DNA of 64,000 nucleotides. It comes from Patescibacteria group bacterium (GTDB taxonomy: Bacteria > Patescibacteriota > Patescibacteriia > SG8-24 > DYFX01). The notes under the pieces were generated by a model. It saw nothing but the letters and a program-made list of their open reading frames with translations. It was not told the DNA's origin and did no database searches. The stretch covers positions 966,657-1,030,656 of the forward strand of contig CP129476.1 of assembly GCA_030583805.1 (NCBI GenBank), given 5' to 3'. The translations under genes were made by a program, and so were the position numbers. Below are positions 1,789 through 64,000 of this stretch, one piece after another (position 1 is the stretch's first letter; every line of letters starts with the position of its first letter).

Positions 1789-2505
1789 ATGAACCGCCGA
1801 GGGGTCGCATCGACCGGGTTGCTGCTCGTCAGCGGGCTTGCGCTTGCGCTGGCCCTGCTCTTCCTGTGGCGGGTTTGGGGATATTACCGCATGCTTTCGT
1901 CCGGCGGTCCGGTCGATTTGCCGCAGTACGCGAGCCAGTTCACCTTGACGGGCAGGACGGGCGAGGTTCCCAAGGGAGCCTTCGCGGACGTCGCGACATC
2001 GGATGATCCGTCGATCGGTCCTATTGATGCGAAACTCACGATTGTCGAATTCGTCGACTACGAGTGTCCGTTCTGCAACATCGAGTCGTCCGTCGTGCGC
2101 GAGCTGGCCGCCAAATATCAGGACAAGGTGCGCTGGATCATCCGCGATTTCCCCGTTCCAGAACTCCATCCCCAAGCCGTGACTGCGGCGGAAGCTGCCG
2201 GCTGCGCCGAAGCGCAGGACAAGTATTGGCCGATGCATGACCGCCTGTACGCAGCGGCGTTCAACAACGAGCTGACGCGCGAAGAGATCGATCGCGCCGC
2301 CGAGCAATCCGGACTCGACATGGCCGTCTATCGCGCCTGCATGAACCTGCACGCCCGTCTCACCGAGATTCAAGACGACGCGGCGGCGGGCCTCGCGGCC
2401 GGCGTGCGCGGCACCCCGACGTTCTTCGTGAATGGCAGCCGCGTCGAAGGCGCCATTCCCAAAGATGCATTCGAAACGATTATCCGCCGCTATGTCACTC
2501 CGTAA
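1789..2505 (+). CDS. DsbA-like thiol:disulfide oxidoreductase (thioredoxin fold, CPFC active site), membrane anchored
   Basis: LTIVEFVDYECPFCNIES...GTPTFFVNG is the classic DsbA motif pair. The start is chosen at ATG 1789 (MNRRGVASTGLLLVSGLALALALLF signal anchor); the track ORF from 1303 overlaps secG antisense. Confidence 0.8.
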   Translation: MNRRGVASTGLLLVSGLALALALLFLWRVWGYYRMLSSGGPVDLPQYASQFTLTGRTGEVPKGAFADVATSDDPSIGPIDAKLTIVEFVDYECPFCNIESSVVRELAAKYQDKVRWIIRDFPVPELHPQAVTAAEAAGCAEAQDKYWPMHDRLYAAAFNNELTREEIDRAAEQSGLDMAVYRACMNLHARLTEIQDDAAAGLAAGVRGTPTFFVNGSRVEGAIPKDAFETIIRRYVTP

Positions 2506-3898
2506 AAACGTTTTTGCCATCGCGCTCGCCGCATCGTGTCTTTTCGGCATCGGAACCGCCTCCGCGCAGACGCCCGAGCCGTTCGTGCCCGAGCCGATCA
2601 AGACGGAAATCGCCATTCCGATCGCCGAGCGCGTCGAGGGGTATACGGGTAATACGGTGACCGATCTCGCCAACTACATCGGCGTCATTTACCAGTTCAT
2701 GATCTCGATCATCGGCGTGGTGGCGGCTGTCATGATGATCATCGGCGGATTTCAGTACCTCACGTCGGCTGGCGACGCCGGAAAAATCGGAGCGGCGCGG
2801 AAACGCATTACGGACGCCTTGATCGGTTTGGTGCTGGCGTTCTCCGCCTACCTGCTGCTCAACACCATCAATCCGGCGCTTCTGAGTTTTGAACCAATCG
2901 GGAATCGATTGAGCCCCGTGAGAACCATCACGGCTTCCTTGCCGTTCTGCGAACAGATGGCAAAAACGTTAAAATTGGATCTATCCCAGATTACGCAGGC
3001 AAAAATGCAAGCCTTTCCGCAAGGTTGCAACTCTTGCGGTTGCGCCGGTTACTTGCAGCAGCCGTCGCTCGATACGTCCGGCAGGCCGAAACTTGATGGG
3101 AATGGGCAGCCGATAAACTCTCGCATCTGGTGCATTTTCCGTGGAGATAGAGCGACACCGAAGGAGAGGGGTGGCGGTGTAATCAATAGTGGCTGTGGAG
3201 AAGAAAAAATATGGACGGCCGAGGCCGAATTTTTCGGTGACGGAGGAAATAATGAGTTCCAGCCCAGTGTCTGTGTGCCCACGGTGCGCTATGGGGCAGA
3301 GGATCTTGAAAAAGCGTTTGTCGAGACCGGCATGACTCCGCATAGGAACGAGCTTGGCCGATGCCAGGCGTGCGCCACTTTCGGTCCCGGCGCCCGCATC
3401 CGCCTTGGGTATGTGGACAGCGCGCAGGCGTGTCAGGCATGGATGAACGTTGCGAACAACGGCAACGCCCAAGATAACCGCTTTACGGTCGGTAACAAAT
3501 CCGAGACAAACTTTGTATTGGATACGAGTCGGCCGAGCCAAATGTACTATTGCGGCTACAGTAGCGATCGTAATAATTGCGTCTACGGCAATGTGCGCTG
3601 CGAAACGCACGTCAATTCCTGCGATGACTACGACAGCGAGTACATCACCTTCTGCGACCAGCCTGATAGCCGCGGCGGCCTGCTTTGTAAGGACGAGGAG
3701 TTGCAAAGCTTTACGGGCGGCAGTTACGGCGCGCACCTCGGACCGATCTGTCAGACCAATCCTTGCGGCGTCGGCGGCGGCTGCGGCCAGTCCGGCATCA
3801 TTGAAGCCCTGAACGGCTTCGGGAGCAGTGGCGGCTTTACGAGTACGGTTTTCCGCGGCTCCACGTTCGGTTTGTGGGATCCTTCAGCATGCGATTAA
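2492..3898 (+). CDS. secreted protein: N-terminal T4SS-pilin-like (TrbC/VirB2-like, PF18895-type) domain fused to a ~300-aa cysteine-rich C-terminal extension
   Basis: Signal peptide MSLRKNVFAIALAASCLFGIGTASAQ. Hydrophobic pilin-like core IIGGFQYLTSAGDAGKIGAARKRITDALIGLVLAFSAYLLLNTINPALL. The C-terminal half carries ~22 Cys (CNSCGCAGY, CQACATFGPG, CETHVNSCDDYD, CQTNPCGVGGGCGQSG). The start overlaps the DsbA stop by 14 nt. Confidence 0.55.
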   Translation: MSLRKNVFAIALAASCLFGIGTASAQTPEPFVPEPIKTEIAIPIAERVEGYTGNTVTDLANYIGVIYQFMISIIGVVAAVMMIIGGFQYLTSAGDAGKIGAARKRITDALIGLVLAFSAYLLLNTINPALLSFEPIGNRLSPVRTITASLPFCEQMAKTLKLDLSQITQAKMQAFPQGCNSCGCAGYLQQPSLDTSGRPKLDGNGQPINSRIWCIFRGDRATPKERGGGVINSGCGEEKIWTAEAEFFGDGGNNEFQPSVCVPTVRYGAEDLEKAFVETGMTPHRNELGRCQACATFGPGARIRLGYVDSAQACQAWMNVANNGNAQDNRFTVGNKSETNFVLDTSRPSQMYYCGYSSDRNNCVYGNVRCETHVNSCDDYDSEYITFCDQPDSRGGLLCKDEELQSFTGGSYGAHLGPICQTNPCGVGGGCGQSGIIEALNGFGSSGGFTSTVFRGSTFGLWDPSACD

Positions 3899-15100: not shown

Positions 15101-15160
15101 GCCCTCGGTTTGCAGATAGATAATTAGGTCGTGCTACCATCAACGCTTTGTTTCGCTGAG

Positions 15161-20336: not shown

Positions 20337-20371
20337 AAAAAAACGGGAAGCGTGCTACCCTCGAAACAGAT

Positions 20372-20725: not shown

Positions 20726-20773
20726 GAGACGGCGATCGCTTACGATCGGATGTTTCTTATTCCCTTTTGAATT

Positions 20774-22126: not shown

Positions 22127-22127
22127 T

Positions 22128-22340: not shown

Positions 22341-25012
22341 GCGACAACCTGAAAGACGATGAAGTCGTCGCGACGCCGAAAGAGGGCGCGAGTCGCGTCA
22401 GTTTTCGTGTGCACCAGGACGTTAGTGCCGAGGGCGTCGTGGTCGAAGGGTCCGACGGCACGCGGCGCTTCGAAGGAAAAGTCGACGTGCGCCGCCGCGG
22501 TGAGATCGACTACCCCGCGAGCGAAGAGAAGCCGGAGAGTCTCATCGCCTTGCTTCGCAAGGTCGTGAAGTTCGACGCCGTGCAAGAACCTTCCTTGCCG
22601 ACGCAGGCTGCAGCGTCCCCGACGCGGGCCGCAGCGTCCCCGACGGAGGCGCCGTCCGGAGATCGCCGCGCCCTGCTTTCGCTCGGCGGCATGCATTGCT
22701 CTTCTTGCGCCAACCTGATCGCGCGCGGACTTCGCAAAGTCAAAGGCGTCAAAGAGGCGAACGTGAACTTCGCCGCCGAAAAAGCGCGCGTCGTCTTCGA
22801 TCCGCGCCAGACCGACGAAGCGGCATTGGTTGAAGCCGTCAAAAAGGCGGGCTATCGGGCGGAACCCGCGTCCAAGGCCGATCCGGAAACGGATCGCGCC
22901 CGCCGCATCGCCGAGATGCGCTCCTACAAGCGCAAGTTCCTCGCCGGCATGATCTTGAGCTTGCCGATGCTCTACTTCATGTTGCTCGACTTCCTGGCCT
23001 TCATGCCCGGAAGAGCGTTCTTGTTCCCCCTTGTCGGCATCATCTCCTTCATCCTGGCCGCGCCCGTCCAAATCGTTCTCGGTGCGGGCTTCTACAAGGG
23101 CATGTGGTCCAGCTTGAGGATGAAGACCTTCAACATGGACTCGCTGATCGCGATCGGTACCACCACCGCCTTCATCTACAGCATCGCCAACTTCCTGATC
23201 TACGCGATCTCCAAGGGGTCGATCGTCGGCGTGGGAGGGGAGAAGATTCCGGAACTGTACTTCGAGACGTCCGCGTTCCTGATCACCTTCGTCCTGCTCG
23301 GCAAGTGGCTCGAGAGCAAGGCGAAAGGCGAGACGTCCGAAGCGGTCAAGAAATTGATGGGCCTGCAAGCCAAGACCGCGCGCGTGATGCGTGACGGTCG
23401 AGCGCTTGACGTACCGATTGAAGAGGTTGTGGTCGGCGACACGGTCGTCGTGCGTCCCGGCGAGAAGATTCCTGTCGACGGCGAGATCATCAAAGGCTCC
23501 TCGGCCGTGGACGAATCGATGCTGACGGGCGAGAGCCTCCCGGTCGAGAAAAAAGAAGGCGACTCCGTCATCGGCGCCACTATGAACAAGACGGGTAGTT
23601 TCGAATTCCGCACGACGAAAGTCGGCGCGGATACGGCGCTCTCGCAGATCGTGCAATTGATCGAAGACGCGCAAGGTTCGCGCGCGCCGATTCAGGGATT
23701 TGCCGACCGGATCTCGGCCTGGTTTGTCCCGGCCGTGATCGCGTTCGCCTTCCTGACCTTCGTCGTTTGGTACTTCGCGCTCGGCGCGTCGCTCAGCTTT
23801 GCGCTCATGGCCTTCACGGCCGTGATCGTCATCGCCTGTCCGTGCGCGCTCGGCTTGGCGACACCGACGGCCATCATGGTGGCGACCGGAAAAGGCGCCG
23901 AGCACGGCATCCTCGTCAAAGGCGGAGAGCCGCTTGAAGCGGCGTGCAAGGTCAAAGCCGTCGTCTTCGACAAGACGGGCACTTTGACGAAAGGTACTCC
24001 GGAAGTGACGGACGTGATCGGCATCGGCCTGACCGATGAAGCCCGCATTCTCGAAATTGCCGCCGGGCTCGAAGTGAAATCCGAGCACCCGTTGGCGGAA
24101 GCGATCTGCCGATACGCGGAAGAGGAGAACGTCGATCCGATCGACGTCACGGACTTCAAGGCGATTCCGGGCCACGGCGTCCAGGCGACGAGCAACGGCA
24201 CGGAATACTTCTTCGGGAATCGCCGGCTCGTGACGGATATCCTCGCGTTGGAAATCTCCGGCTTCGACCGGAAGATGCGGAAGCTGGAAGAAGCCGGAAA
24301 GACCGTCATGATCTTGGCGACGAAAACCGGCGTTGTCGGATTGATCGGCGTCGCCGACACGATCAAAGACACCTCGGCGCTCGCCGTGGCTGAACTGAAG
24401 AAGATGGGACTGGCGGTCTTCATGATCACGGGCGATAATGAACGCACGGCGCGCGCGATCGCGAAGCAGGCGGGCATCGAGAACGTGCTCGCGGAAGTCC
24501 TGCCGGAACACAAGGCTGATGAAGTCAAAAAGCTGCAAGCGACGGGCATCAAGGTGGCGATGGTCGGAGACGGCATCAACGACGCGCCGGCCTTGGCGCA
24601 GGCCGATCTCGGCATCGCCATGTCGAGCGGCACCGATGTCGCCATGGAAACGGGCGGCGTCGTGCTCATGAAAAACGACTTGAACGACGTCGTGACGGCC
24701 ATCAAGCTTTCGCGCGAGACACTCGGCAAGGTGCGGCAGAACCTGTTCTTCTCGCTCTTCTATAACGTCGCCGGCATTCCGATCGCCGCGCGCGTTTTCG
24801 CGGGCGTCGGCCTCGTGCTCAAGCCGGAGTTGGCCGGCCTCGCGATGGCGCTCTCCTCGGTATCCGTCGTGGCCAACTCGCTGCTTCTGCGCGGCTTCCG
24901 TCCCGACCGCCGCAACTGGCTCTCCTTGGCCGCACCGTTCGTCATGACCGCGTTGTTCCTGGCCGCCTTCATCGGATTCGCTCGCCTGAGCGGCGGAACG
25001 ATGGGTGCCTGA
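22337..25012 (+). CDS. copA: copper-translocating P1B-type ATPase (CPC type)
   Basis: N-terminal HMA ([12 protein letters not shown]), TM CPC motif [18 protein letters not shown] phosphorylation site, GDGINDAP hinge. Confidence 0.9.
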
Positions 25013-25084
25013 GGCGCCCGCCTGCACGTCATCTTCAGGATCATCGCGTTTGCGTGCGTCTGAGCTGATAGCACACGCGTTTGC

Positions 25085-25090
25085 TATACT
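25085..25090 (+). promoter_or_regulatory. extended -10 TGcTATACT, 7 nt upstream of the copB-like ATG
   Basis: GTTTGCTATACTTCCTCATATG. Implies a leaderless or very short-leader mRNA. Confidence 0.35.
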
Positions 25091-25097
25091 TCCTCAT

Positions 25098-27185
25098 ATG
25101 ACTTACGTCTGCCCGATGCATCCTGAAGTGACGCGCGACGTTCCCGGCCGGTGTCCCGAATGCGGAATGGAACTCGTGCCGATGAAAGAAAAGAAAGGCC
25201 ACGGCGCGTATGCGGCGCCAGGCAAGCATGAAGGCCACTCGACCGCGATGTTCGCCCGGAAGTTTTGGATCAGTTTCGCGCTGACAATCCCGGTCGTCCT
25301 GTATTCCGAGATCGTGCCGATGCTCTTCGGCTGGCGGCCGCCGTCCTTTTCCGGTTCGGCCTACGTGCCGGCGATTCTCGCCTCGATCGTCTTCTTCTAC
25401 GGCGGCCTGGTCTTCCTTGCCGGCGGCTTCAGGGAATTGCGCGGCCGGAAGCCCGGCATGATGACGCTGATCTCGCTGGCCGTCGTTGCAGCCTATGCCT
25501 TCAGCGTCTGGTCGACGCTCATTGGCGCCAAAGAAACCCTTTATTGGGAGCTGACGACGCTTATCACGGTGATGCTGCTCGGTCATTGGCTTGAGATGCG
25601 GGCCGTGAGCAGCACGAGCGGCGCTTTGAAGGAGTTGGCGAAACTTTTGCCGGACACGGTCGAAGTGCTGCGCGACGGTACGTCGACGAAAATTCCGCTC
25701 TCGGAGCTTCGCGAAGGCGACCGTTTCATCGTACGGCCGGGCGGCAAGATTGCCGCCGACGGCGACATCGAGGATGGCGAGTCTGAAGTGAACGAGGCGG
25801 CGGTTACCGGCGAGTCCCGGCCCGTCAAAAAAGGAGGGGGTGACTCGGTCATCGCCGGTACGATCAACGGCGACGGATCGTTGACCGTGCGCGTCAAGAA
25901 CATCGGCGAGAAAACCTTTTTGGCCGGCGTCATGCGGCTGGTTGCCGACGCCCAAGCTTCGAAATCGAAACTGCAGATTCTCTCCGACCGCGCAGCCATG
26001 GTGCTCACGTACATCGCGGTCGGCGCGGGCGCCGTCACTCTGGCCGTTTGGTGGTTTGCCGCGTCTCCCGTCTTCGCCGTCGAACGCATGGTGGCGGTGC
26101 TCGTGATCGCTTGCCCGCACGCGCTCGGCTTGGCCGTGCCGCTCGTCGCTTCGATCTCCACGATGATGGCGGCGCGGAACGGTTTCTTGGTGAAGCAGCG
26201 TCTCGCGCTTGAAGCCGCTCGCAACATCGATATCGTCCTGTTCGACAAAACCGGCACGCTGACGAAAGGGGAGTACGGCGTCGATCGCGTCTGGGGCTTC
26301 GGCCTTTCGGAAGACGACGTGTTGGCGCTGGCTGCAGCGGTCGACGCTTCGTCGGAACACGTCGTCGCCAAGGCGACGGTCGCGCGTGCCAGAGAAAAGG
26401 GCCTCGTTATCCCGGCGGTGGAAGCTTTCCAGCGGGTGCCCGGCAAGGGCGTGAAAGCGCGCGTCGGAGGCCGCGAGATTTCCATCGGCGGAGAAAATGC
26501 GCTTGCCCCGGGCGCGCGACAAGTAGCGTCGAAGGTCTGGGACGAAATCGCGGAAGAAAATGCCAAGGGCAAGACGGTCGTCTACGTGCTGGAGAACGAC
26601 GCCGTGCTCGGAGCGATCGCGCTTTCCGACGTCCTCCGCGAGGAATCACGCGAAGCGATCGCGCTGCTCAAGAAGATGAACGTCAAAGTCGGCATGGTCA
26701 CCGGCGATTCCGACGATGTCGCGGCCTGGGTCGCGGGGGAGCTCGGCATCGACGAAGTGTTTGCCCGCGTCCTTCCGGGCGACAAGGCGGGCAAGGTCAA
26801 GGGGCTTCAAGCCAAGGGGCTCAAGGTCGCGATGGTCGGAGACGGCATCAACGATGCGCCCGCGCTCACGCAAGCCGACCTGGGTATCGCGATCGGCGCC
26901 GGCACGAACGTCGCCGTCGAGTCGGCAGGCATTATTTTGGTAAAGAACGATCCGCGCGACATTCCCAAGATCGTGCACCTGTCCCGCCTGACCTACGCCA
27001 AGATGATCCAAAATCTTTTTTGGGCGACGGGCTACAACATCGTGGCGATGCCGCTTGCGGCCGGCGTCCTGGCGAGCCGCGGCATTATGCTTCAGCCGGC
27101 TGTGGCTGCCGTTTTCATGTCGCTCAGCACGGTGATCGTGGCGGTGAACGCCCTACTCTTGCGCGGAAAGAAGCTTTCGGCATGA
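25098..27185 (+). CDS. copB: P1B-type heavy-metal ATPase, CPH type (CopB-like), with N-terminal CxxC...CxxC metal-binding domain
   Basis: N-terminal YVCPMHPEV...GRCPECGMEL (HMBD-like). TM motif ACPHALGLAVP (CPH). [15 protein letters not shown]. Confidence 0.85.
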   Translation: MTYVCPMHPEVTRDVPGRCPECGMELVPMKEKKGHGAYAAPGKHEGHSTAMFARKFWISFALTIPVVLYSEIVPMLFGWRPPSFSGSAYVPAILASIVFFYGGLVFLAGGFRELRGRKPGMMTLISLAVVAAYAFSVWSTLIGAKETLYWELTTLITVMLLGHWLEMRAVSSTSGALKELAKLLPDTVEVLRDGTSTKIPLSELREGDRFIVRPGGKIAADGDIEDGESEVNEAAVTGESRPVKKGGGDSVIAGTINGDGSLTVRVKNIGEKTFLAGVMRLVADAQASKSKLQILSDRAAMVLTYIAVGAGAVTLAVWWFAASPVFAVERMVAVLVIACPHALGLAVPLVASISTMMAARNGFLVKQRLALEAARNIDIVLFDKTGTLTKGEYGVDRVWGFGLSEDDVLALAAAVDASSEHVVAKATVARAREKGLVIPAVEAFQRVPGKGVKARVGGREISIGGENALAPGARQVASKVWDEIAEENAKGKTVVYVLENDAVLGAIALSDVLREESREAIALLKKMNVKVGMVTGDSDDVAAWVAGELGIDEVFARVLPGDKAGKVKGLQAKGLKVAMVGDGINDAPALTQADLGIAIGAGTNVAVESAGIILVKNDPRDIPKIVHLSRLTYAKMIQNLFWATGYNIVAMPLAAGVLASRGIMLQPAVAAVFMSLSTVIVAVNALLLRGKKLSA

Positions 27186-27662
27186 CGGTCGGGTATACTG
27201 GGGCGACATGACGCGCGGCACCTCAACCGAATTGATCCGCACGACGGCGAAGCTGGTCTTCGGATCTTTTCTTTTCCTGTTCATCGCTTCGTTCTTGGTC
27301 GTGCCGTGCATGCAAGGAGCCGGCGGACTGTTCGTTTCGGCGGCGACCGCGCCTTTGCAGGGCATGCGCTCGTCGTCGGCGGCGATGACACTGCCGCGTA
27401 CCGTCGTCCGCGGCGCGTTGCCGATGACGACGTTCGGAGGCTCGCTCTTGGCAACGCCGGCATCGAGCGCCGTGCTGCCCGCCGCTTCCATCCAATACGC
27501 GAGCGCCTGGCAGGCGTCGCCGCCCCCGCTCTCGATCCCTGTGCAGAAACAGGCAGTAAAGACCGTCAGCCGCTCGCCTTTGGCTGCCGCGGCTTCTTGC
27601 ATGGAGTCTAAAATTTTCAAACCACAGATGAACGTCTTCAAGGCGTTCGAGGCGTCGGCCAC
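27153..27662 (-). CDS. hypothetical Cys-containing protein (coding strand uncertain; see findings)
   Basis: The minus-strand ORF has a protein-like composition (…TACFCTGIESGGGDACQALAYW…MPCKGAVAA…). The overlapping plus ORF 27208-27843 is S/A/P/R-rich and low-complexity, but it is preceded by a TATACT box 8 nt upstream of its ATG. Confidence 0.3.
   Translation of the reverse strand: MADASNALKTFICGLKILDSMQEAAAAKGERLTVFTACFCTGIESGGGDACQALAYWMEAAGSTALDAGVAKSEPPNVVIGNAPRTTVRGSVIAADDERMPCKGAVAAETNSPPAPCMHGTTKNEAMNRKRKDPKTSFAVVRINSVEVPRVMSPQYTRPSCRKLLSAQE
27194..27199 (+). promoter_or_regulatory. TATACT -10-like box, 8 nt upstream of the ATG at 27208
   Basis: GGGTATACTGGGGCGACATG. Confidence 0.25.
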
Positions 27663-27889
27663 GGAGCACCCGTTCCGTTTCGCCGTCGTCCTGACGTTCG
27701 TCTTCGGCGCGGCGGCGCTCCTACTGATTCCGAGGCGCGCTCCGATACGCGCGCGTCCCGGCTGGATACGGCGCCGCTCCCTGCCGTTCGCGTCTTCCGA
27801 CGCCCCGCGTCTTTCCGCCTTTGCCGCGCAGCGCGATGCCTGACGATCCCGTTGCTTCCGCAGTTCACGATTAACTCAGCAATGATTGT

Positions 27890-28651
27890 ATGGATTCCAA
27901 CGAAAAGTTTTCGATGTCGCTCTCGGTCAAGCAAATCTTCCTCGCGGGCGTCGCCGCCGGCGTGCTCGGCGTGGCCGCTCTCGGTTTCCTCCTCATGGTG
28001 ACGAAGGGCGTCGATGCCAGCTCGTGGTTCTCGGGTTCCGCCCGCGCTCCGCTCGCGGTCGCTCCGTCCGCTGGCGTGCCGACGGCTCCGGCCGGCGGCG
28101 AACAGGTCGGCGAAGTCGCTCCGGTCACGAATGACGACCATATCCGCGGCGACAAGAACGCCGAGATCACGCTTCTCGAGTACTCCGACTTCGAATGCCC
28201 GTTCTGCTCGCGCTTCCACCCAACGCTCGTCCAGGCTTTGAACGAGTACAAGGGCAAGGTGCGCTGGGTCTATCGCCACTTCCCGTTGAACTCGATCCAC
28301 CCGAACGCGCAGAAGGCGGCCGAAGCCTCCGAGTGCGCCAACGAGCAGGGTAAGTTCTGGGAGATGGCCGACAAGATGTTCGAGAAGCAGGCCTCCGGCC
28401 TTACCGTCGCGCAGCTCTCCGGGCTCGCCAAGGAAGCCGGCGTGCGCGACATCGCGAAGTTCGACGCGTGCGTCTCGAGCGGCAAGTACGCAGCCCTCGT
28501 CGCCGCCGACCTCGCCAGCGGCGAAGCGGCCGGCGTGACCGGAACGCCGGGCACGATCGTGATCAGCAAGGACGGCACGAAGCAGCTCATCCCGGGCGCG
28601 CTTCCGTACGAGTCCGTCAAGCAGATTATCGACTCGATGCTCGCGTCCTAA
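27890..28651 (+). CDS. DsbA-like thiol:disulfide oxidoreductase (CPFC), membrane anchored
   Basis: TLLEYSDFECPFCSRFHP...GTPGTIVISKDG. Paralogue of the 1789-2505 gene. The alternative start MSLSVKQ is at 27914. Confidence 0.8.
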   Translation: MDSNEKFSMSLSVKQIFLAGVAAGVLGVAALGFLLMVTKGVDASSWFSGSARAPLAVAPSAGVPTAPAGGEQVGEVAPVTNDDHIRGDKNAEITLLEYSDFECPFCSRFHPTLVQALNEYKGKVRWVYRHFPLNSIHPNAQKAAEASECANEQGKFWEMADKMFEKQASGLTVAQLSGLAKEAGVRDIAKFDACVSSGKYAALVAADLASGEAAGVTGTPGTIVISKDGTKQLIPGALPYESVKQIIDSMLAS

Positions 28652-28662
28652 GACGCGGCGAA

Positions 28663-28698
28663 AAGAAAAAAGCCCCGCACCGTATGGTGCGGGGTTTT
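28663..28698. terminator. bidirectional rho-independent terminator
   Basis: AAAAGAAAAAAG-CCCCGCACC-GTAT-GGTGCGGGG-TTTTG. Confidence 0.6.
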
Positions 28699-28704
28699 GC
28701 GTAT

Positions 28705-29352
28705 TCACGCGGAGGCGATGATGGTTCCCGCCTCGCAATCGGCGAAGGCTTCGTCGAAGGCTTGCTCGGCGTGGCACAGGAATTCTTCCATCGTGTGATG
28801 ATCTTCCGACTGCAGTGCGCGCGGAACCGCGTCCCAGATCGTCGAGACGTGCACGGTTTGCATCGGCTCGAAGTCCGGGTTCTTGGCGGTGTGCTTCCTG
28901 TCCCGGTGCTCCGGATGCCAGAAGCGAATGCGCTTCACCTGGTTGCGCCAGTCGCGCAGGCTGCCGTCGCGGCGCGCGTATTGCGCCGCTTCGTCGGCCA
29001 GGGTCAGGAAGGTCGTGAGATGGCAGTCGTCGAGCAGCGCGCTCCGCGGCGCCGGTTGCAGCGTGAGCGAGCAGCAGGGCTTGGCCGAGCAGTGGGTCAT
29101 CGCATCGGTCACGATGAAGCTCGGACAGCGGTAGCCCATGCGCATGCGTCCTGTCTCCGGCACGATTTCCGGCACCTCGATCATCATGTCGAAGCGCAAG
29201 CTGGCCGGAACGACTTCGGGCACGATCGTCGCGAAGTACAGCTTGAGGCCGATGACCGGACGTTCTCGATTGCGGAGATTGACGCTTTCGAGCCGGATGC
29301 GCAGCAGGTTTCGGCGAAGCCATTCGGCGGAACGGGCGGGGGTAACGAACAT
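28705..29352 (-). CDS. hypothetical Cys/His-rich protein
   Basis: Start at MFVTPARSAEW. Contains CPSF...THCSAKPCC, FWHPEHRDRKH and C-terminal CHAEQAFDEAFADCE. The overlapping plus-strand ORF 28468-29367 is R-rich junk. Confidence 0.45.
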   Translation of the reverse strand: MFVTPARSAEWLRRNLLRIRLESVNLRNRERPVIGLKLYFATIVPEVVPASLRFDMMIEVPEIVPETGRMRMGYRCPSFIVTDAMTHCSAKPCCSLTLQPAPRSALLDDCHLTTFLTLADEAAQYARRDGSLRDWRNQVKRIRFWHPEHRDRKHTAKNPDFEPMQTVHVSTIWDAVPRALQSEDHHTMEEFLCHAEQAFDEAFADCEAGTIIASA

Positions 29353-56406: not shown

Positions 56407-57006
56407 ATGCCCGCTGATCTGCCGATCACGGACGAAAGGCCCCGTGAGCACCGCGCTGGGGCGTGGGTTGTTTTGGTTATGGGGTTGATCGGTCTCGGCC
56501 TCGGCATCTATCAGTGGCGCGCGTCGTTCCGCGCGGCCTTCGTCAGCCAGGTCAGCGCGTTCAAAACGCCGGAGCAAATCGAGCAAGAGCAGATCGAGGC
56601 GATGAAAACGAAAGACACGGACGGCGACACGCTCAACGACTTTGAAGAAACGTACGTCTACAAAACGAGCCCGTACCTCAGCGACTCCGATTCCGACGAA
56701 CTTCCGGATAACGAGGAGTTAAAAGCGGGGGAGGACCCGAACTGTCCCAAAGGAAAAAACTGCATCGAGTCCGGCGTGGCCGTAACGCTCTCGCCGCAAG
56801 CCGAAGTGGCAAGCTCGACCGCGCAAATCGAGGAAGACGCGATGCGACAACTTCTGAACCCCACGCCCGCGCAAATCCGCGCGCTCCTGATGCAGAATGG
56901 CGTAAAGGAAAGTGACCTCTCCGGTATCGATGACGCTACGCTGGTAACTCTGTACCAGCAGTCCCTCCAGGAAGTTCAAGCCAATGCCGACAAGAATTCC
57001 AACTAA
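56407..57006 (+). CDS. membrane-anchored protein with a DxDxDG Ca-binding-like and acidic Ser/Asp repeat segment
   Basis: TM AWVVLVMGLIGLGLGIY, then KDTDGDTLNDFEE (thrombospondin-type-3/dockerin-like Ca loop) and SDSDSDELPDNEE. Its 3' end overlaps the giant ORF's start by 23 nt. Confidence 0.5.
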   Translation: MPADLPITDERPREHRAGAWVVLVMGLIGLGLGIYQWRASFRAAFVSQVSAFKTPEQIEQEQIEAMKTKDTDGDTLNDFEETYVYKTSPYLSDSDSDELPDNEELKAGEDPNCPKGKNCIESGVAVTLSPQAEVASSTAQIEEDAMRQLLNPTPAQIRALLMQNGVKESDLSGIDDATLVTLYQQSLQEVQANADKNSN

Positions 57007-60000
57007 GATCTTTGCCGCTTTCCTGATCGCGTTCTTTCTTGTTGCCAAACCGGCGGCGGCGCAGTTCGGCGTGCCGCAGGTCGTCGTCGACCCCGGCGCC
57101 AATGCGCAGCTTGGCGCAGCACAGGCAAACTTGACCGCGCAAACCGCCCAAGGAACCGTGCAAACGACCGAGACGGTCAAGCAATCGGCTTGGCAAGTCT
57201 TGAAAATCTCGCTGACCAACACGGCCGCGCTCGCGCTTTTGAACGGCGTCAACTATTTCGCGCAAAAAGTGGCTTATGACGCCGCGGTGTATTTGGCCTC
57301 GGGCGGCAGTGGTCAGAAGCCGTTTTTCACGACTGAAGGTCTCGGCAACTACCTTCAAAACACCGCCGCCGACGCTGCCGGCGAAGTACTCGGCACGTTG
57401 ACGACGGATCCGGCCAGTTTCGGGAAATACGGCATTAATTTGTGCGTACCGAAAAACCCCCAACTCGCCCTGAATTTCAAGATCGGTTTCTTGAAAGGAT
57501 TGCCGGGAATCTTGGGAACGGGCGGTCCGACGCCTCCCGTACCGAAATGTACGTGGGACTCGATCGACAGCAACTGGACCGCGTTCGTCAATCAGGACTC
57601 CTCCGCGGTGCTCGACCAGATCGGCGTCATGTTCACGCCGGGTGAGAGCTCGCTTTCGGCCGCGATCGAGCTGAACAACGTCGCTTTGAGTCAGATTGCC
57701 GAAAAGAATCTCGAGTCCTACGGCGATTATTTGGCCAACAAGGGCTTCAAGCCGGTGCGCGACTTCATTTCGCGCGACATCAAGACGCCAGCCTCCACGA
57801 TCGAGAACCAGTTGAACACCTCGTTGGAGCAAGGTTGGAAGCAGGGCGACCGCACCGTGGCAATCACGGGCAGCGCTTTCGGCAACGCCGCTTTCGGTAT
57901 TCTTCCCGCCGCGCTCCAGACTTTTGCCGGCGCTCTTTCGGAGCAGCTGCTCAAAAAAGTGTTCACGCAGGGTCTCATTTCCGTCAACGATCTTCTTGGC
58001 AGCAATAGCGACCAGGCGCTGCAGTTCGGCGCGACGCCTCCTCAGGGCGGTCGCGCGTCGGCGGAGCTCGCGAATGCCTCGCTGTTGACGCCGAAAATCT
58101 TGTCGATCACGAACTATAACGAGCTGACGGATTTTGCGACGTGCCCCGCGACCGGCAGTACCGCCAACCACTGCGTCATCGATACGCAGTTCTACAATGC
58201 CGTGTCGCGCGCCGATCAGGGCCAGGCGATGACCGTGCGCCAGGCCGTGCAGCAGGGTTTCCTTAACCGCGGCTGGCAGCTGCTCCCGCTCGCGCACCGG
58301 AAAAATATCGAGAAAAACTGCTACGGAGAAGCGTTCTGCTATTCCAACCTCGTGAAGCTGCGCCTCGCGCGCGTGCTGCCCGTCGGTTGGGAAATGGCGG
58401 CCAACTCTCCGTTCAACGACGTGAACCGCCCCGTTACGCTTGGCGAGGCGATGGATCGTTTTGAAGACTGTCCGCGCGATCCGGACGGCAACGTCGATGA
58501 AACGCGTTTGCCCGACCCGCTGCATCCCTGGTGCCACATGGTCGATCCGGAATGGGTTCTGAAGTACCCGTCCGCCATCTGCCGCCAGCAAGCTCCGGGA
58601 CCGACCTTGCTTTCGTCGCAATCCGCCGCGCGCGTCGAGAGCTGCGTCGACGTCACGACATGTATCGCCCAGGATGCTTCCGGAAACTGCACGGGGGGAT
58701 ACGGCTATTGCGTGCGTGAAAAGAGCGTGTGGAAGCTGGATGCCGACGCGTGCCCGGCGCAGTTCACAAGCTGCACGGTCTATAACCGCTCGGACGGCGC
58801 TTCGTTCTCGTTCCTCTCAAATACGCTCGATGCGGGCCCCTGCAATTTGCAGAACGCCGGTTGCCGCCAGTACAGCCTTTCCTCGAATTCCGTGCCGAAC
58901 GGCAGCTTTGAAGATCTTTTGGCCGGCCAGCCGCGCGATTGGATTTTGTCCGCCGGTGCGCGACTCGATCGTTCCGGAAGCTGGTCGTCCCACGGCACGA
59001 ACTCCGTCGGCGTTCTTGCCGGCAACGGCGCCTCCGCACGCATTCCGTCGCTGATGGCGGGGAAGAAATACACGATCTCGGCCGGCGTGATCCAGGAGCT
59101 TGAAGGAACGACGTTTGCCGGTACCGTGCGCATCGCGTTCCTGCGCGCCGACGGCACTCCGGTTGAAACGGCGACGCTCGCCACGACGTGCCAGAGCGAA
59201 AACTTGGGCCGCGGCGTTTCACTTTCGATCGTCGCGACGGCGCTCGGCCACCAGTACGGTTCATGCGAGGTGACGACGCCTCCGGGCACCACCTCTGCGC
59301 TTTTGGAAATCAGTTCTGCGGCTCCCGCCGCGGGCAACCGGACATGGTTCGACGTGGTCGGCGTTTTCGGCGAAGGGTATTCGACGTCGCCGTACGATGG
59401 TATTTTCCTGAACGCGCAAACCGCGACCTGCGCCGCCGGCGACGCCGGTTGCACGGAGTTCGTCCGCTTGTCGACCGGCACGCTGAACCTCGTAAGAAAT
59501 CCTGGCTTCGAGGAAGAAAACGCCGCAACGAACCGCGCGGCGTATTGGAACATGGATCCGAGCCGGTACGTGAACGGTACGTTCACCGGATACGAAGGCA
59601 GCTCCTCCGTCGAGCTGTCGCCGACGCCAGTCAGCCAAGACGTCTATGGCCTGCTTTCCGACGCCGCATACAGCTTTTCGGTGAAAACGCGCTATCCGGG
59701 CGCGGGTGCTCCGCCCACCGCGTCCGCGACGATCCAGTTGTATGACACAAACTCGCCGCCGCAGCCGGTATCGCCGGTGACGGTCGATGGTTGCACGGTC
59801 TCCGGCTCGCAGATGCGGGTGAACTTGGCGGTCGGAACCGGATACGAAACCTCGACGTGTTCGTTTACGACTCCGTCGAATGTCGGATACGCGCGCGTCG
59901 TCCTGACGTCAAGTTCTCCTACGGATGAAGTGCAAGCTGACGCCGTTCAACTCGAGTTGTCGGTTGGCGCCACGCCGTATCACGAGGCATACGCGTCGAC

Positions 60001-63000
60001 GGCTCAGCGCGTCAATTTGAAGAAGGCGCCCGTCGGACTCGACTGCGCCGGTTCGGATCGTTCGCCGGAGTGCGACAAATATGCGCCGTCCTGCCGCCGC
60101 GACGAAGTCGGCTGCAACGCCTATCGGCCCGTTGATGGGGGAACGACGATCACGGCCGTTACGACGGCGAACGACGTATGTCCTGCCGCCTGCGCGGGCT
60201 ATGACACCTTCCGCCAAGAGCCGACGCAGTTCAACGAAGCGCGTTTCCCGCTCTTCCTGATTCCTTCGACGGCGCAAAGCTGCACCGCTAGCGAAGCGGG
60301 GTGTTCCGAATTTACGAATATCGAAAAACTTGCCCAAGGCGGAGAATCGCGCGAGTACTTTACGTATCTACGCCTGTGCACCAAGCCTGACGACCAAGCG
60401 GCCACCTACTACACCTGGGAAGGCAATGACGTGCGCGGCTACCAGCTCCGTTCGTGGTCGTTGCGCCGCTCCAATCTTGCTTCGGCCATCGGTCCTTCCG
60501 ATCCGACCGGCGGCACGGCTCCTTGCACGAAATTGGGATACGACGGAACGGGTCAGCCTCGTTGCGCCGACGACGCCGTGAGCGTGGTGGAAGCTTCGTG
60601 CACGAGAACGGACATGATCTTCAACCCGGATTGCCGCGAGTTCTATGACGTGGACGGCAACATCCACTACCGCCTGTATTCCAAGACGATTCTTTCCTCG
60701 GATGCCTGCCGCGAGTACCGCATTACGAAGAGCACGGAAGCGGAGTGCCGCGATCATGGCGGCAAGTGGCAGAACAGCGAATGCCGCTATCTGGCCTACG
60801 CGCCGGAGAGCTTGACGTGCGCGGCGACGGCGAAAGATTGCCGCGCCTATTCCGGCAATGCGTCTCGCAACGTGCGCGTGCTTGTAACGCACGACTTTGA
60901 AGCTGGTACCACGGAAGGTTGGACGGCAGCTCCTGGCGGCGGCAGCACGACGGACGTCGTGAACAGCAACGAGGCTGTTTCCGCCGGCGGCCATTCGCTG
61001 AAGGCGACGCGCGCCGATGTGACGAGCAATGTTTCAAGCCGCATCCGGAAAGGAAAGTCTTACATCCTGACCTTCTGGGCCAAGGGTACGGGCGATTTGA
61101 CCGCCCGATTGAGCCAGGCGGCTGACGCCAGCTTCACCTTCAACCGCACGACCTCCACGGAGGCGCCTGTCGCGCTTTCGACCGAGTGGCGATCGTACCA
61201 GATCGGCCCGGTTGAGGCCGTTCGTTCTCCGGAAACCAACGAGCAGCTGGTCTTCCAGCGTCTTGGCGGAGGCGCGCCGCTCTTCTTCCTCGACAACATC
61301 GAGCTTCGGGAAATTACCGACGACGTGTACCTCATCGAGGAATCTTGGCAGACGCCGCTTGCGTGCGATCAGACGCCGTCGGGCGCTTCGTCGCCGCAGT
61401 ACATGCTTGGTTGCCGTGCCTACGACGACCGCACCAACACGCGCGCGACCTTCAAATCGTTCGAAAAGCTTTGCCGCCCCGAAGTAGTCGGCTGCGAGGC
61501 GTTGTATGACACGCGCAACTCGGCTTCGCCGTTCGCGGAAACGTTCCGCGCCGTCTGTACGCTCGCGGCCTCTTGCGCCCCCGGCGCCGAGCTCACCTGC
61601 CCGTGCGCCGTCGATGGCGCCACGGTCTGCCAGGTGACGCGAGGGGAGACCAGCTGCCGATATGACGTCAACGACGACGTTCCGGCTTCGCGCGTCAGCC
61701 CTGACGGCGACACGGTTCGTGTCTCGCCCGACGGCATCGAATACTTGGTAAACGATCTTCGCTATCGCTGCGACGCCGACGCGATCGGCTGCACGGCCAT
61801 GGGCGACAAGCGCATGAACAGCGCCCGCACCTCAGTCGACAGCTGGAAGACCGTGTACCTCCGCAACGTCCCTTCGGACTATGCGCGCACGCTCTGCAAC
61901 GCGCCGGAACAGTACTGCCAGGCCTACACGCGCAAAGCGGATGCGGCCCCGGTCTTCTTCAAGGATCCCGAAGCGCGCGTTTGCGAATTCCGCGAAGGCG
62001 CTACCGCGGGCAGCCGCGGCTGGTTCAAGCAGGGGACGAGCGAACCGTGCGATCCGGGCTACTTGGAGGCCGGCGACCGCTACGGCATCTGGAAGAACTC
62101 GGACGCCTCGTATGACGGCTGGGCGGGCGTTTGCTCGCCGCAGTACGACATGTGCAAGGAGTTCATCGATCCGGTCGCGACCTCGCCTGCCTTCCCGAAC
62201 GGGACGCCGTACTACGCGATTCTGAACGACCGGCTCGACACGCGCACGTGCCAAAACCGCGTCAGCCTGAACGAATCGCCGTCCGGCGCGAACGCGGCCT
62301 CCGCCTGTGTCCTCTTCTGGCAGACGGACAACCTCACCAAGACCTATAGCGCCACCGCGACGTACGCCCTTTCGGACGCGCAGCGAGGAGCGCTTGTCGC
62401 TCCGCAGTCCGGCGGAGCCCAGAACGACTCCAACATCATCATCCGCGTGCAGCGTGATCGTCAGTGCGGCGAGTGGCTTGATTGCCGCTCCAGCGAGACG
62501 GTGTTCAACGCCACGACCGGGCAGTATCAGAACGTCTGCACCTCGTACAGCCTTTGCGCTGAGTTTGAACGCATCGGCAACACGACGCGCTGCGTCCGCT
62601 ACGTCGAGAGCAGCTATTCCGGTGAGACGCTGACGGCGGGCGTATACTCCGCGCGCACGGTTGGATCAAAGGGAATGGAATATTCGGGCTTCGCCATTCC
62701 GAACCGCTATCCGGTTGACGAACTCGTGACAGCTAACATCGGGCCTAGTGCGACCGAACCCGATCTGCGCCTCGTGTTCGTATCGAGCGCTTGCAACGGC
62801 GCGTACGGCACGTTCTGCGGTCCGGCCGACGACCAAGGCAGCTGCTTGGGTCCGGCAGGCAGCCGTCTCTGCGTCCACCCGATCGACGGCGGACGTCTCA
62901 TCACCTCGGAAGCCCAGCTGAACCAGCCGCTGATCGTTTCGGGGTATCCGGGCGCTTCTTGCCGCGCGTACCCTCAGGAGAACGCGCCGTTCCCTTCGGG

Positions 63001-64000
63001 CGTCGCCGATCCGAACGGTTGGAATTACGAAGCCGCCGAAATCAATAGCGGGAACCCGGTCTTGATCAGCCCGAGCCCGGCCTTTGCCGGCGCCAACGTG
63101 TGCCAGCGGCGTTTGGTGAACGGCGTCGAGGTTTCAAGCTGCGAATGCAATTACCTGATCGCCAGCTACGGTTCCGACAAGAAATACTTCCCGGCCGGCA
63201 GCTCTGATATTCCGAGCGGCTACTGCAGCGGCGGCGCGTATGCGGGATACGAATGCGATCCGCTCGCTTCGGGCGCTCGAACGCTGAACAATCCGTCGTG
63301 CTGCAGCCAGGCGGCGAACAGCGCGTCGGGCCTTCTCGCAAGCGGCTGCAACGACGGCGGCCAGTGCGTCCGTGTCAATAAAGTCGACCGCGTCGTCGGT
63401 TACGAGGGCCAGTGTTTGGAATACGACATGACGCGGCCGATCAACGGCACCTCGAACCAGTACGCCTGCTTGACCTGGCGCCCGGTCGGCTTGATCGGCG
63501 GCTCCCGCGACATCTACAACCAGAACCAGTCGGCCGGATACTTCACGGCCGCCGACCGCCGGTTCTATTGCGTCGGCGACCAGGCGAGCTGGGCGCTTAC
63601 GCTCAACATCAACACGACCGACGACTTGAACGGCGACGACGTCATCGATCCGCTCGATCAATACACGACGAAGTATTTCGGCACTGGAAAGTACAACAAC
63701 CGTGTCGAAAATTACGCTTCGAACGGCGGTGACTGCTCTGACGACGCGGATAATGCGGGCGGCACGCGCTGGTGCCTCTACCCGGGTCTCTCGACGTTGT
63801 CTCAGGAGAGGGATACTGACCCTGACCAGCGTTATCGCCTCTCGAGCGATCCGATTGGTATTCTCGGTTGCTACGAAGTGTCCGATCCGAACAGCGAATC
63901 GCTTGTCGCAGCGCCCGGCCCTGCCGAGATCGTATGGCCGTACATCGGCCCGCCGCTCTACCAGGATCAGCTCGAGAGCATGTATTTCCAGGTAGCCGAA
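56984..64000 (+). CDS. giant secreted cysteine-rich surface protein (>2339 aa, 3' end beyond the window) with at least two CBM/galactose-binding-like modules
   Basis: The frame is uninterrupted from ATG 56984 to the window end; an in-frame TAA lies at 56945-56947 upstream. Sec signal peptide MPTRIPTKIFAAFLIAFFLVAKPAAA-Q. Over 90 Cys are spread throughout, with G/S/T/N-rich low-complexity linkers. Two segments (NPGFEEENAATNRAAYWN...; THDFEAGTTEGWTAAPGG...FFLDNIELRE) resemble CBM_4_9-type beta-sandwich modules. Absent from the ORF track only because no stop occurs in the window. Confidence 0.7.
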   Translation, partial: MPTRIPTKIFAAFLIAFFLVAKPAAAQFGVPQVVVDPGANAQLGAAQANLTAQTAQGTVQTTETVKQSAWQVLKISLTNTAALALLNGVNYFAQKVAYDAAVYLASGGSGQKPFFTTEGLGNYLQNTAADAAGEVLGTLTTDPASFGKYGINLCVPKNPQLALNFKIGFLKGLPGILGTGGPTPPVPKCTWDSIDSNWTAFVNQDSSAVLDQIGVMFTPGESSLSAAIELNNVALSQIAEKNLESYGDYLANKGFKPVRDFISRDIKTPASTIENQLNTSLEQGWKQGDRTVAITGSAFGNAAFGILPAALQTFAGALSEQLLKKVFTQGLISVNDLLGSNSDQALQFGATPPQGGRASAELANASLLTPKILSITNYNELTDFATCPATGSTANHCVIDTQFYNAVSRADQGQAMTVRQAVQQGFLNRGWQLLPLAHRKNIEKNCYGEAFCYSNLVKLRLARVLPVGWEMAANSPFNDVNRPVTLGEAMDRFEDCPRDPDGNVDETRLPDPLHPWCHMVDPEWVLKYPSAICRQQAPGPTLLSSQSAARVESCVDVTTCIAQDASGNCTGGYGYCVREKSVWKLDADACPAQFTSCTVYNRSDGASFSFLSNTLDAGPCNLQNAGCRQYSLSSNSVPNGSFEDLLAGQPRDWILSAGARLDRSGSWSSHGTNSVGVLAGNGASARIPSLMAGKKYTISAGVIQELEGTTFAGTVRIAFLRADGTPVETATLATTCQSENLGRGVSLSIVATALGHQYGSCEVTTPPGTTSALLEISSAAPAAGNRTWFDVVGVFGEGYSTSPYDGIFLNAQTATCAAGDAGCTEFVRLSTGTLNLVRNPGFEEENAATNRAAYWNMDPSRYVNGTFTGYEGSSSVELSPTPVSQDVYGLLSDAAYSFSVKTRYPGAGAPPTASATIQLYDTNSPPQPVSPVTVDGCTVSGSQMRVNLAVGTGYETSTCSFTTPSNVGYARVVLTSSSPTDEVQADAVQLELSVGATPYHEAYASTAQRVNLKKAPVGLDCAGSDRSPECDKYAPSCRRDEVGCNAYRPVDGGTTITAVTTANDVCPAACAGYDTFRQEPTQFNEARFPLFLIPSTAQSCTASEAGCSEFTNIEKLAQGGESREYFTYLRLCTKPDDQAATYYTWEGNDVRGYQLRSWSLRRSNLASAIGPSDPTGGTAPCTKLGYDGTGQPRCADDAVSVVEASCTRTDMIFNPDCREFYDVDGNIHYRLYSKTILSSDACREYRITKSTEAECRDHGGKWQNSECRYLAYAPESLTCAATAKDCRAYSGNASRNVRVLVTHDFEAGTTEGWTAAPGGGSTTDVVNSNEAVSAGGHSLKATRADVTSNVSSRIRKGKSYILTFWAKGTGDLTARLSQAADASFTFNRTTSTEAPVALSTEWRSYQIGPVEAVRSPETNEQLVFQRLGGGAPLFFLDNIELREITDDVYLIEESWQTPLACDQTPSGASSPQYMLGCRAYDDRTNTRATFKSFEKLCRPEVVGCEALYDTRNSASPFAETFRAVCTLAASCAPGAELTCPCAVDGATVCQVTRGETSCRYDVNDDVPASRVSPDGDTVRVSPDGIEYLVNDLRYRCDADAIGCTAMGDKRMNSARTSVDSWKTVYLRNVPSDYARTLCNAPEQYCQAYTRKADAAPVFFKDPEARVCEFREGATAGSRGWFKQGTSEPCDPGYLEAGDRYGIWKNSDASYDGWAGVCSPQYDMCKEFIDPVATSPAFPNGTPYYAILNDRLDTRTCQNRVSLNESPSGANAASACVLFWQTDNLTKTYSATATYALSDAQRGALVAPQSGGAQNDSNIIIRVQRDRQCGEWLDCRSSETVFNATTGQYQNVCTSYSLCAEFERIGNTTRCVRYVESSYSGETLTAGVYSARTVGSKGMEYSGFAIPNRYPVDELVTANIGPSATEPDLRLVFVSSACNGAYGTFCGPADDQGSCLGPAGSRLCVHPIDGGRLITSEAQLNQPLIVSGYPGASCRAYPQENAPFPSGVADPNGWNYEAAEINSGNPVLISPSPAFAGANVCQRRLVNGVEVSSCECNYLIASYGSDKKYFPAGSSDIPSGYCSGGAYAGYECDPLASGARTLNNPSCCSQAANSASGLLASGCNDGGQCVRVNKVDRVVGYEGQCLEYDMTRPINGTSNQYACLTWRPVGLIGGSRDIYNQNQSAGYFTAADRRFYCVGDQASWALTLNINTTDDLNGDDVIDPLDQYTTKYFGTGKYNNRVENYASNGGDCSDDADNAGGTRWCLYPGLSTLSQERDTDPDQRYRLSSDPIGILGCYEVSDPNSESLVAAPGPAEIVWPYIGPPLYQDQLESMYFQVAE

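Follow-up and report, generated by a model that had tools for sequence, protein, structure and literature searches.

Two closely coupled genes lie on the forward strand at the 3′ end of a 64,000-nt stretch of contig CP129476.1, from a Patescibacteria group bacterium (the whole stretch is called the window here, and positions are counted from its first letter). The first encodes a 199-amino acid (aa) membrane protein with acidic motifs of the thrombospondin type 3 (TSP3) kind, referred to below as the partner. The second, which begins inside the first, encodes a giant, cysteine-rich secreted protein whose gene leaves the window before it ends. In related genomes this pair is followed by the genes of a type IV secretion system (T4SS), and the giant protein is a candidate for the part of that system that touches the host cell. 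An earlier interpretation made from the letters alone (the sequence-only reading) had suggested that the pair could be a membrane anchor or receptor plus a very large extracellular adhesin or glycan-binding fiber of an episymbiotic or surface-attached small-genome bacterium; a small-genome organism of the Patescibacteria or candidate phyla radiation (CPR) type is supported.

The giant protein and its membrane partner

The giant open reading frame (ORF) contains no stop codon from its ATG at 56984 to the window end, a run of 2,339 codons, and it does not appear in the ORF list because the frame runs off the window end, as the sequence-only reading had recognized. Its GC content at the three codon positions is 0.57/0.52/0.77, and the third-position values of the three genes upstream are 0.73–0.77. 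A spurious frame in high-GC sequence, which an atypical codon usage would have betrayed, is ruled out by this agreement with the neighboring genes and by hundreds of homologs with invariant cysteines. The long minus-strand ORFs that overlap the gene (e.g., 56936–58621) are shadows of the 60% GC sequence. Within the window the product carries 86 cysteines (3.7%), fewer than the more than 90 claimed earlier, and glycine, serine, threonine and asparagine together make up 31%; full-length homologs possess 108–110 cysteines.

A word-indexed search retrieved 66 homologs, almost all of 2,900–3,700 aa, and the few that bear names belong to Patescibacteria, Candidatus Uhrbacteria and Candidatus Magasanikbacteria. 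One of them, the 2,957-aa protein P0001, shares 92% identity with the giant protein across the entire query, so the window cuts off about 620 residues of the giant protein. An exhaustive phmmer search with residues 1–640 against 1.84 billion cluster representatives (clusters at 50% identity) yielded 1,310 representatives at E ≤ 1e-3 and 917 at E ≤ 1e-30, and nearly all of the matches listed are 2,500–3,900 aa in length, obvious fragments aside. The 181 full-length members have a median length of 3,043 aa, and cysteine makes up 3.0–5.7% of their residues. A search of genome contigs for related loci returned 13 close loci, so the taxonomic breadth of the family is drawn from a few source names (Uhrbacteria, Magasanikbacteria, Paceibacter and “Patescibacteria group”).

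The only strongly hydrophobic stretch of the giant protein found in a hydropathy scan spans residues 3–30 and is followed by AAA and then Q at the predicted cleavage site, a pattern that recurs across the family and agrees with the clean Sec signal peptide and secreted, cysteine-rich product described earlier. Many mature ends in the family read A-Q-phi-V-V-[ST]-D-P, for example AQFVVSDPITNV, AQWVVTDPGATA and AQAAVSDPATEAATAL, as well as those beginning AQFVVSDP or AQWVVTDP, and the strict form occurs in 38 of 204 members, where shuffled sequences predict 0.7. The copy in the window, AQFGVPQVVVDPGANAQL, is degenerate (VVVDP). In VirB5 of pTiC58 the N-terminal sequence reads AQFVVSDPATEAETLATAL (its start is given as ...ARAQFVVSDPATEAETLATAL). 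Apart from carbohydrate-binding modules (CBMs), DUF4141 (PF13605) is the most recurrent Pfam family at the N-terminus of these proteins. It was matched by all ten N-termini selected for the motif and was the best Pfam match in nine of them (E 2.8e-5 to 0.14, all sub-threshold), and among unselected members it was matched by 4 of 38 (2/16 and 2/22). In the distant member P0063 the match covers aa 43–79 (E 9.5e-5). Every DUF4141 match falls at the junction between signal peptide and mature protein and scores below the 30-bit gathering threshold; a weaker recurrent match is to TrbC, a T4SS pilin family. With a hidden Markov model of the giant-family N-terminus, VirB5 scored 13.8 bits and ranked second of 6,017 sequences, 6,000 of which were shuffles.

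DUF4141 itself proves to be the signature that minor pilins of the VirB5 type carry at the N-terminus. A precomputed PF13605 match is present on several genuine VirB5 proteins of Rhizobiaceae, and in conjugative transposons of Bacteroides the traI slot, flanked by traG (VirB4) and traJ (VirB6), is taken by a DUF4141 gene (PMC10434189). TraI of CTnDOT is homologous to VirB5, according to Guglielmini et al. (PMC4027160). Homology over the whole N-terminal domain of the giant protein was sought with hhalign against a VirB5 alignment and rejected (probability 3.6%); PDB profile searches returned no VirB5, TraC or TrwJ, and tblastn of the N-terminal segment against plasmids gave no match. The helical body of VirB5, a three-helix bundle of about 200 aa, has no counterpart in the giant protein by profile or fold, and the family median lies far above the 200–250 aa of VirB5. 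Because the DUF4141 matches are sub-threshold and the hhalign and PDB searches were negative, the likeness appears to be one of motif only, and the giant protein is not classed as a member of the VirB5 family.

Beyond the mature N-terminus, two AlphaFold2 (AF2) models predict a region of long helices at low confidence, for which no fold match was found. It leads into a compact alpha/beta domain whose predicted local distance difference test (pLDDT) score is 80–95 in both models. R460, G468, E470, A472 and W524 of this domain are invariant in 67 of 67 sequences, and D521, K527 and P529 show little or no variation, depending on the alignment. A fold search recovered no recognizable relative of the domain, and a lysozyme or transglycosylase identity, prompted by the invariant glutamate, was without sequence or fold support.

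The remainder of the protein is a cysteine-rich scaffold in which hairpin motifs of the form C-x6-C-x2-[YFLM] lie at aa 590, 620, 816, 1037, 1100, 1279, 1497, 1596, 1638 and 1717. The expected number is 0.47, and none of 5,000 shuffles reached ten; in each of 16 diverse members (30–70% identical to the window protein), both cysteines of all ten motifs are kept without exception. The hairpins match no known cysteine-rich repeat family in Pfam or NCBIfam. Three CBM-like modules are inserted in the scaffold, each directly preceded by such a hairpin, where at least two had been proposed from the letters. The third is matched by CBM_4_9 (PF02018) at aa 1299–1406 (E 1.7e-10; score 41.9 bits, cut-off 25.9), and this family is matched in 15 of the 16 diverse members; it also has PDB profile matches to CBM22 xylan-binding modules. 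Modules 1 and 2 are confident AF2 beta-sandwiches that Foldseek relates to tandem CBM22 (E 4.5e-12), to CBM16 and CBM61 (target-normalized TM-score 0.71–0.75) and to CBM-like domains of Cry and Vip3 proteins.

Conservation among the same 16 members, measured against the window protein, is highest in the scaffold segments and the compact domain (identity 0.34–0.46), whereas mean identity falls to 0.15 in module 1, with 0.44 of aligned positions occupied, and to 0.24 in module 2. Such unevenness reads as the pattern of a constant frame displaying variable binding modules. Sortase or other C-terminal anchoring signals, whose presence the sequence-only reading had suggested checking, are essentially absent from the full-length members: an LPXT[GAS]-like string occurs in only 2 of 181, and a C-terminal hydrophobic or transmembrane (TM) segment in none. 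Distant members (P0063, P0051, P0011–P0013 and P0019) carry accessory modules, with Dockerin_1 in P0063, fn3 in P0051, Big_9 in several and PKD in one, and the helical region of P0063 holds a cysteine-containing insertion of about 100 aa.

The partner consists of an N-terminal TM anchor, two TSP3-type repeats, a cysteine pair and a conserved C-terminal helical domain. Its gene overlaps the giant gene by 23 nt (57006 − 56984 + 1), exactly as first reported, and a GGAAG sequence lies 9–13 nt 5′ of the giant ATG. The acidic loops, DTDGDTLNDFEE and DSDSDELPDNEE, follow the motifs DTDGDxLxDxxE and DSDSDx and are predicted from these to bind Ca2+. Of the two relationships proposed for them earlier, the thrombospondin one held, through a local match to NCBIfam throspo3_MtsD at E 2.7e-6 with a score far below the full-length cut-offs, and the dockerin one did not, as Pfam gave no Dockerin match at E ≤ 1. 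Precomputed TSP3_bac matches, marked faint, are present on the partner orthologs of two distant loci (L007 and L008). In six orthologs, D70, D72, D74, L76, D78 and E81 of the first loop, D93, D95, S96, D97, D101 and E104 of the second, and C113 are invariant. Five other loci carry, directly 5′ of their giant gene, a gene that aligns to the partner with all acidic positions kept, even though the giant proteins of three of these loci share only about 30% identity. By tblastn, the partner is found upstream of the giant gene in every locus reaching that far, which is the co-conservation that the sequence-only reading had proposed to look for. Spacing ranges from the 23-nt overlap in close relatives to gaps of 1–12 nt in distant ones. 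Since the partner is kept in these loci and the spacing is always tight, co-conservation and co-expression of the two genes are well supported. The coordinates of all features are collected below.

Features of the window discussed in the text, with their coordinates and the basis on which each was assigned
Feature	Position	Strand	Basis
Partner gene, 199 aa	56407..57006	+	ORF
Partner, single TM segment, aa 16–35, GAWVVLVMGLIGLGLGIY	56452..56511	+	Hydropathy of the 84%-identical ortholog in L001
Partner, TSP3-type acidic Ca2+-loop repeats (predicted), aa 65–115	56599..56751	+	NCBIfam, alignment
Giant ORF, 5′ 79% only (2,339 of ~2,957 codons)	56984..64000	+	Stop-free translation; full-length homolog P0001
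Giant protein, Sec-type signal peptide, aa 1–26, ...KPAAA cut before Q	56984..57061	+	Hydropathy; pattern kept in family
Giant protein, mature N-terminus QFGVPQVVVDPGANAQLGA, variant of VirB5/TraI (DUF4141) N-terminal motif	57062..57118	+	Family alignment
Giant protein, predicted long-helix region, aa 46–374	57119..58105	+	Two AF2 models, pLDDT mostly <50
Giant protein, conserved compact alpha/beta domain, aa 375–535	58106..58588	+	AF2, alignment of 67 sequences
Giant protein, Cys-rich scaffold carrying CBMs, from aa ~536	58589..64000	+	Motif count, alignment
Giant protein, CBM-like beta-sandwich 1, aa 635–805 (sandwich ~635–800), most variable module	58886..59398	+	AF2, Foldseek
Giant protein, CBM-like beta-sandwich 2, aa 835–1005 (sandwich ~835–1000), variable	59486..59998	+	AF2, Foldseek
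Giant protein, CBM_4_9 module 3, aa 1296–1445	60869..61318	+	Pfam PF02018
488-aa secreted protein, T4SS_pilin (VirB2-like) domain and Cys-rich C-terminal extension	2432..3898	+	Pfam PF18895
DsbA-like paralog (TM and CPFC), ...VEFVDYECPFCNIES...	~1789..2505	+	Motif/ORF; likeness to the other DsbA around CPFC by eye
Membrane-anchored DsbA-like oxidoreductase (CPFC)	27890..28651	+	Pfam Thioredoxin_4 E 5.6e-29, DSBA E 2.8e-17

Type IV secretion genes downstream in relatives

Related loci share a single gene order, namely rsmA, the TSP3 membrane protein, the giant gene, a polytopic membrane protein, PrgI/VirB3, a TrsD-like protein, VirB4 and a VirB8-like protein. By tblastn, all nine distinct loci with enough downstream sequence show this order, even where identity drops to about 30%. 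In L001, one of the nine, the giant protein (P0002) shares 81% identity with the query, and 4 nt after the giant stop codon comes the gene for a 975-aa polytopic protein with about seven TM segments and a long coiled-coil tail. Next come a 583-aa soluble protein, PrgI/VirB3 (PF12666, E 4.9e-9), a TraC-like/TrsD-type protein, the VirB4 ATPase (P-loop_TraG, E 4.9e-28), a 200-aa protein with a TM segment and an NTF2-like domain, and a ComF-type phosphoribosyltransferase. The 200-aa protein may be called VirB8-like on its weak SnoaL_4 match, its topology and its position. Gene order is the same in L004 (giant protein 60% identical), L007 (Magasanikbacteria, 28%) and L008 (31%), and, by tblastn, in L011 and L016–L019. 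Only 4–10 nt separate the giant stop codon from the polytopic gene in L001, L004 and L007, which suggests one transcription unit; the gap is 314 nt in L008, where a 506-aa gene with a weak T4SS_pilin match closes the T4SS cluster.

A soluble protein of 480–620 aa with a proline-rich middle always lies between the polytopic gene and prgI (21797–23548 in L001, and its orthologs elsewhere) and has no Pfam match; it is a further uncharacterized component of the T4SS locus. Eight contigs carrying the locus (L009, L010, L012, L015, L016, L018, L019 and L021) are third-party records of metagenome-assembled genomes labeled “uncultured Gammaproteobacteria bacterium”, and, with a locus of Patescibacteria type, these are probably mislabeled bins.

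Proposed role of the giant protein and alternative explanations

A T4SS is widespread in Patescibacteria. In the only species examined, the Saccharibacterium Southlakia epibionticum, epibiotic growth requires it (PMC11665869, PMC12857230), and its function has been called “completely unknown” (PMC11665869). A recent survey of these systems by Quinonero-Coronel et al. (2025) detected no adhesins such as PrgB (PMC12102498). The related loci resemble those of the survey in their set of PrgI/VirB3, TrsD-like, VirB4 and VirB8-like genes, in ksgA/rsmA upstream (a feature of the phylum) and comF downstream (of class ABY1), and in a gene with a T4SS_pilin domain, present in the window and in L008. They differ in that the giant gene, which is the largest gene of the related loci and stands at their 5′ end, and its TSP3 partner are unmentioned there.

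Taking this context together with the weak N-terminal motif, we favor, at a probability of roughly 0.55, the interpretation that the giant protein is an exported, disulfide-stabilized extracellular host-binding subunit of the patescibacterial T4SS, a monoderm, MPF_FATA-like and relaxase-less system. The Sec pathway would export the chain of about 3,000 aa, and signal peptidase would remove its leader. Membrane-anchored DsbA enzymes would then form some 50 disulfides, including the ten invariant C-x6-C staples, to give a rigid scaffold that presents the three beta-sandwiches of CBM4/9/22 type, for which the fold is established. The two hypervariable CBMs could bind glycans of the host surface and so set host specificity. 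The conserved N-terminal region of about 530 residues, with its VirB5-type motif, the TSP3 partner, or both, might tether the giant protein non-covalently to the T4SS, where it would bring the channel or pilus into contact with the host envelope. The gene with a T4SS_pilin (VirB2-like) domain and the two DsbA genes in the window also speak for this interpretation.

Several observations weigh against this interpretation. The T4SS genes lie outside the window, which ends about 1.9 kb before the expected giant stop codon, and relatives at 81–92% identity are the basis for placing them in this genome. Synteny extends well past the T4SS, as groES/EL, prfB, an epimerase, sua5 and rsmA are likewise conserved, so that lying side by side says little, by itself, about a common function. 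In one locus (L006) a 9.5-kb unrelated block (19463–29035), encoding a GIY-YIG protein, an AAA_33 protein, two DMRL-synthase fragments, a Ser/Thr kinase, SerRS and an M23 peptidase, splits the giant gene from the polytopic gene, the next of T4SS type, so the linkage is breakable. The window protein's own N-terminus gave no DUF4141 match in a Pfam scan. The 975-aa polytopic protein may be termed VirB6-like on its topology of about seven TM segments and its position; homology to VirB6 was rejected, as hhalign against VirB6 of pTi gave a probability of 0.1% and Pfam no TrbL match. The AF2 models cover residues up to ~1050 of about 2,957. Finally, that the protein binds carbohydrate, lies on the surface and interacts with the partner are all predictions.

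The principal alternative is the one put forward by the sequence-only reading, that of a free-standing surface adhesin or glycan-binding fiber that has its own Ca2+-binding membrane anchor and is independent of the T4SS, to which it would be a neighbor merely by conserved gene order. Several observations would fit it: the giant protein is secreted, cysteine-rich and CBM-bearing, the conserved TSP3 partner is tightly coupled to it, synteny reaches unrelated housekeeping genes, the insertion in L006 parts the pair from the T4SS genes, and large cysteine-rich extracellular proteins are a general CPR feature (PMC4736985, PMC8080830). The short gaps to the polytopic gene speak against it, however, as do the recurrent N-terminal matches to T4SS pilin families (DUF4141 and, more weakly, TrbC) and the lack of an anchor on the giant protein itself; that the partner would serve as one is an inference. 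Since T4SS genes follow the pair in all relatives whose loci reach far enough, we consider a free-standing adhesin operon unlikely. Less likely still is an extracellular enzyme in which the compact domain would be a new catalytic module that cuts polymers of the host's or its own wall, analogous to VirB1 and targeted by CBMs as in glycoside hydrolases. CBM4/9/22 modules are usually attached to glycan-active enzymes (CAZy modular enzymes), and the invariant R460 and E470 and near-invariant D521 cluster in a small, confidently folded domain. VirB1 homologs, moreover, are rare near virB4 in most Patescibacteria classes (PMC12102498). This idea is nonetheless improbable, as no catalytic family in Pfam, NCBIfam or PDB was recovered by sequence or fold, and the domain is small and lies between the helical region and the scaffold, not beside the CBMs.

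A secreted toxin-like or membrane-penetrating protein was also considered, in which a Vip3-like helical N-terminus would refold to a needle or pore and the CBM-like domains would bind the target. Foldseek does align the tandem CBM region with domains of Vip3 and Cry protoxins (E 1e-10 to 1e-9), and long helices predicted at low confidence over the N-terminal ~350 aa are what a metastable or oligomeric segment would be expected to give. These matches are limited to generic beta-sandwich modules, though, with none on the helical part; no immunity-like gene was noticed, and the size and cysteine content are unlike those of known toxins of this type. We regard this explanation as very improbable.

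Within the preferred interpretation of a host-binding T4SS subunit, a more specific version is conceivable but doubtful, namely that the giant protein is a tip or stalk subunit of the VirB5 type, enlarged many times over. VirB5 is a tip adhesin and a pilus-nucleating pentamer on VirB6. By analogy, the polytopic (VirB6-like) product of the neighboring gene would be the platform on which the N-terminal module docks, and this module would be carried out on a VirB2-like pilus, with a rigid, disulfide-stapled, CBM-studded host-recognition head of about 320 kDa at the tip. Like VirB5 and TraI of CTnDOT, many members of the giant family have a signal peptide immediately followed by A-Q-phi-V-V-[ST]-D-P and then a helical region, and in relatives the giant gene lies directly 5′ of one for a polytopic membrane protein, as virB5 does of virB6. 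The giant protein is about 14 times larger, however, and no profile or fold similarity beyond the motif was detected. Were this version correct, the giant protein would be the missing host-contact part of a T4SS essential for epibiotic life, and its variable CBMs would encode host range.

Among known systems, the closest functional analogs would be PrgB, in a monoderm T4SS, and the VirB5 tip adhesin, in a diderm one. PrgB, the aggregation substance of pCF10, is likewise a large Sec-exported surface protein of a monoderm T4SS locus with a presumed role in cell–cell contact, but the giant protein has no LPXTG and shares no domains with it, is cysteine-rich, disulfide-dependent and CBM-bearing, and is more than twice its size. 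The cysteine-rich proteins of Peribacteria (PMC4736985) and the giant surface proteins of Vampirococcus (PMC8080830) also combine a signal peptide, very large size, several percent cysteine, presumed attachment and a small-genome symbiont. Those proteins are heterogeneous and not linked to a T4SS, whereas the giant family is a single orthologous family with a fixed architecture and genomic position. The CBMs resemble CBM4, CBM9, CBM22 and CBM16 in their CBM_4_9 match above threshold and beta-jelly-roll fold and differ in lacking a glycoside hydrolase domain and in lying between disulfide hairpins. The partner shares its DxDxDGxxDxxE loops with the TSP3 repeats of MtsD/CglD of Myxococcus, but it is a 199-aa bitopic protein with two repeats only and an unrelated helical C-terminal domain. 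Because it has neither LPXTG nor a VirB5 body and CBM_4_9 is its only curated domain, the giant protein is not a demonstrable member of the PrgB, VirB5 or CPR cysteine-rich groups. We regard it as a putative secretion-system-associated host adhesin, which is a known kind of protein and not categorically new; the family itself was found undescribed in the searchable literature.

About 1,300 clusters of secreted proteins of ~3,000 aa, fixed directly 5′ of T4SS genes, with Uhrbacteria and Magasanikbacteria included, provide a concrete candidate for how the patescibacterial T4SS touches its host. The family offers several handles: ligands of the variable CBMs could predict host identity, the conserved N-terminal module has no recognizable fold relative, and the membrane partner carries Ca2+ motifs. 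As a large disulfide-rich client, the giant protein could also account for membrane-anchored DsbA enzymes in such tiny genomes.

Further genes in the window

Two DsbA paralogs had been noted in the window, and both were recovered, one by Pfam and the other by its CPFC motif. The latter lies directly upstream of, and slightly overlaps, the gene for the 488-aa pilin-like protein, and the two look like a gene pair of DsbA and client. The T4SS_pilin match of the 488-aa protein (PF18895, aa 79–146, E 5.2e-9) is above the cut-off and is followed by an extension of about 340 aa; the protein has 21 cysteines in total and is possibly part of the same apparatus as the giant protein. No similarity to the giant protein was found, and no exact copy of the 488-aa protein is on record.

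A few kilobases upstream of the Pfam-assigned DsbA gene, a 450-aa fusion of HMA, DsbD_2 (CcdA-like) and cupredoxin domains is encoded at 20774–22126 (+), and two large ORFs (22337–25012 and 25005–27185) occupy the space between them. The region as a whole (20774–28651) may be a redox or copper-handling cluster. Elsewhere, ARAGORN places a tRNA-Ile gene with anticodon TAT at 14203–14278 (+), and GC content dips at 14001–16000 to the lowest value of the window (0.527 versus about 0.61). Next to the tRNA gene is an ORF for a 523-aa lipoprotein-like product (15356–16927) without a Pfam match.

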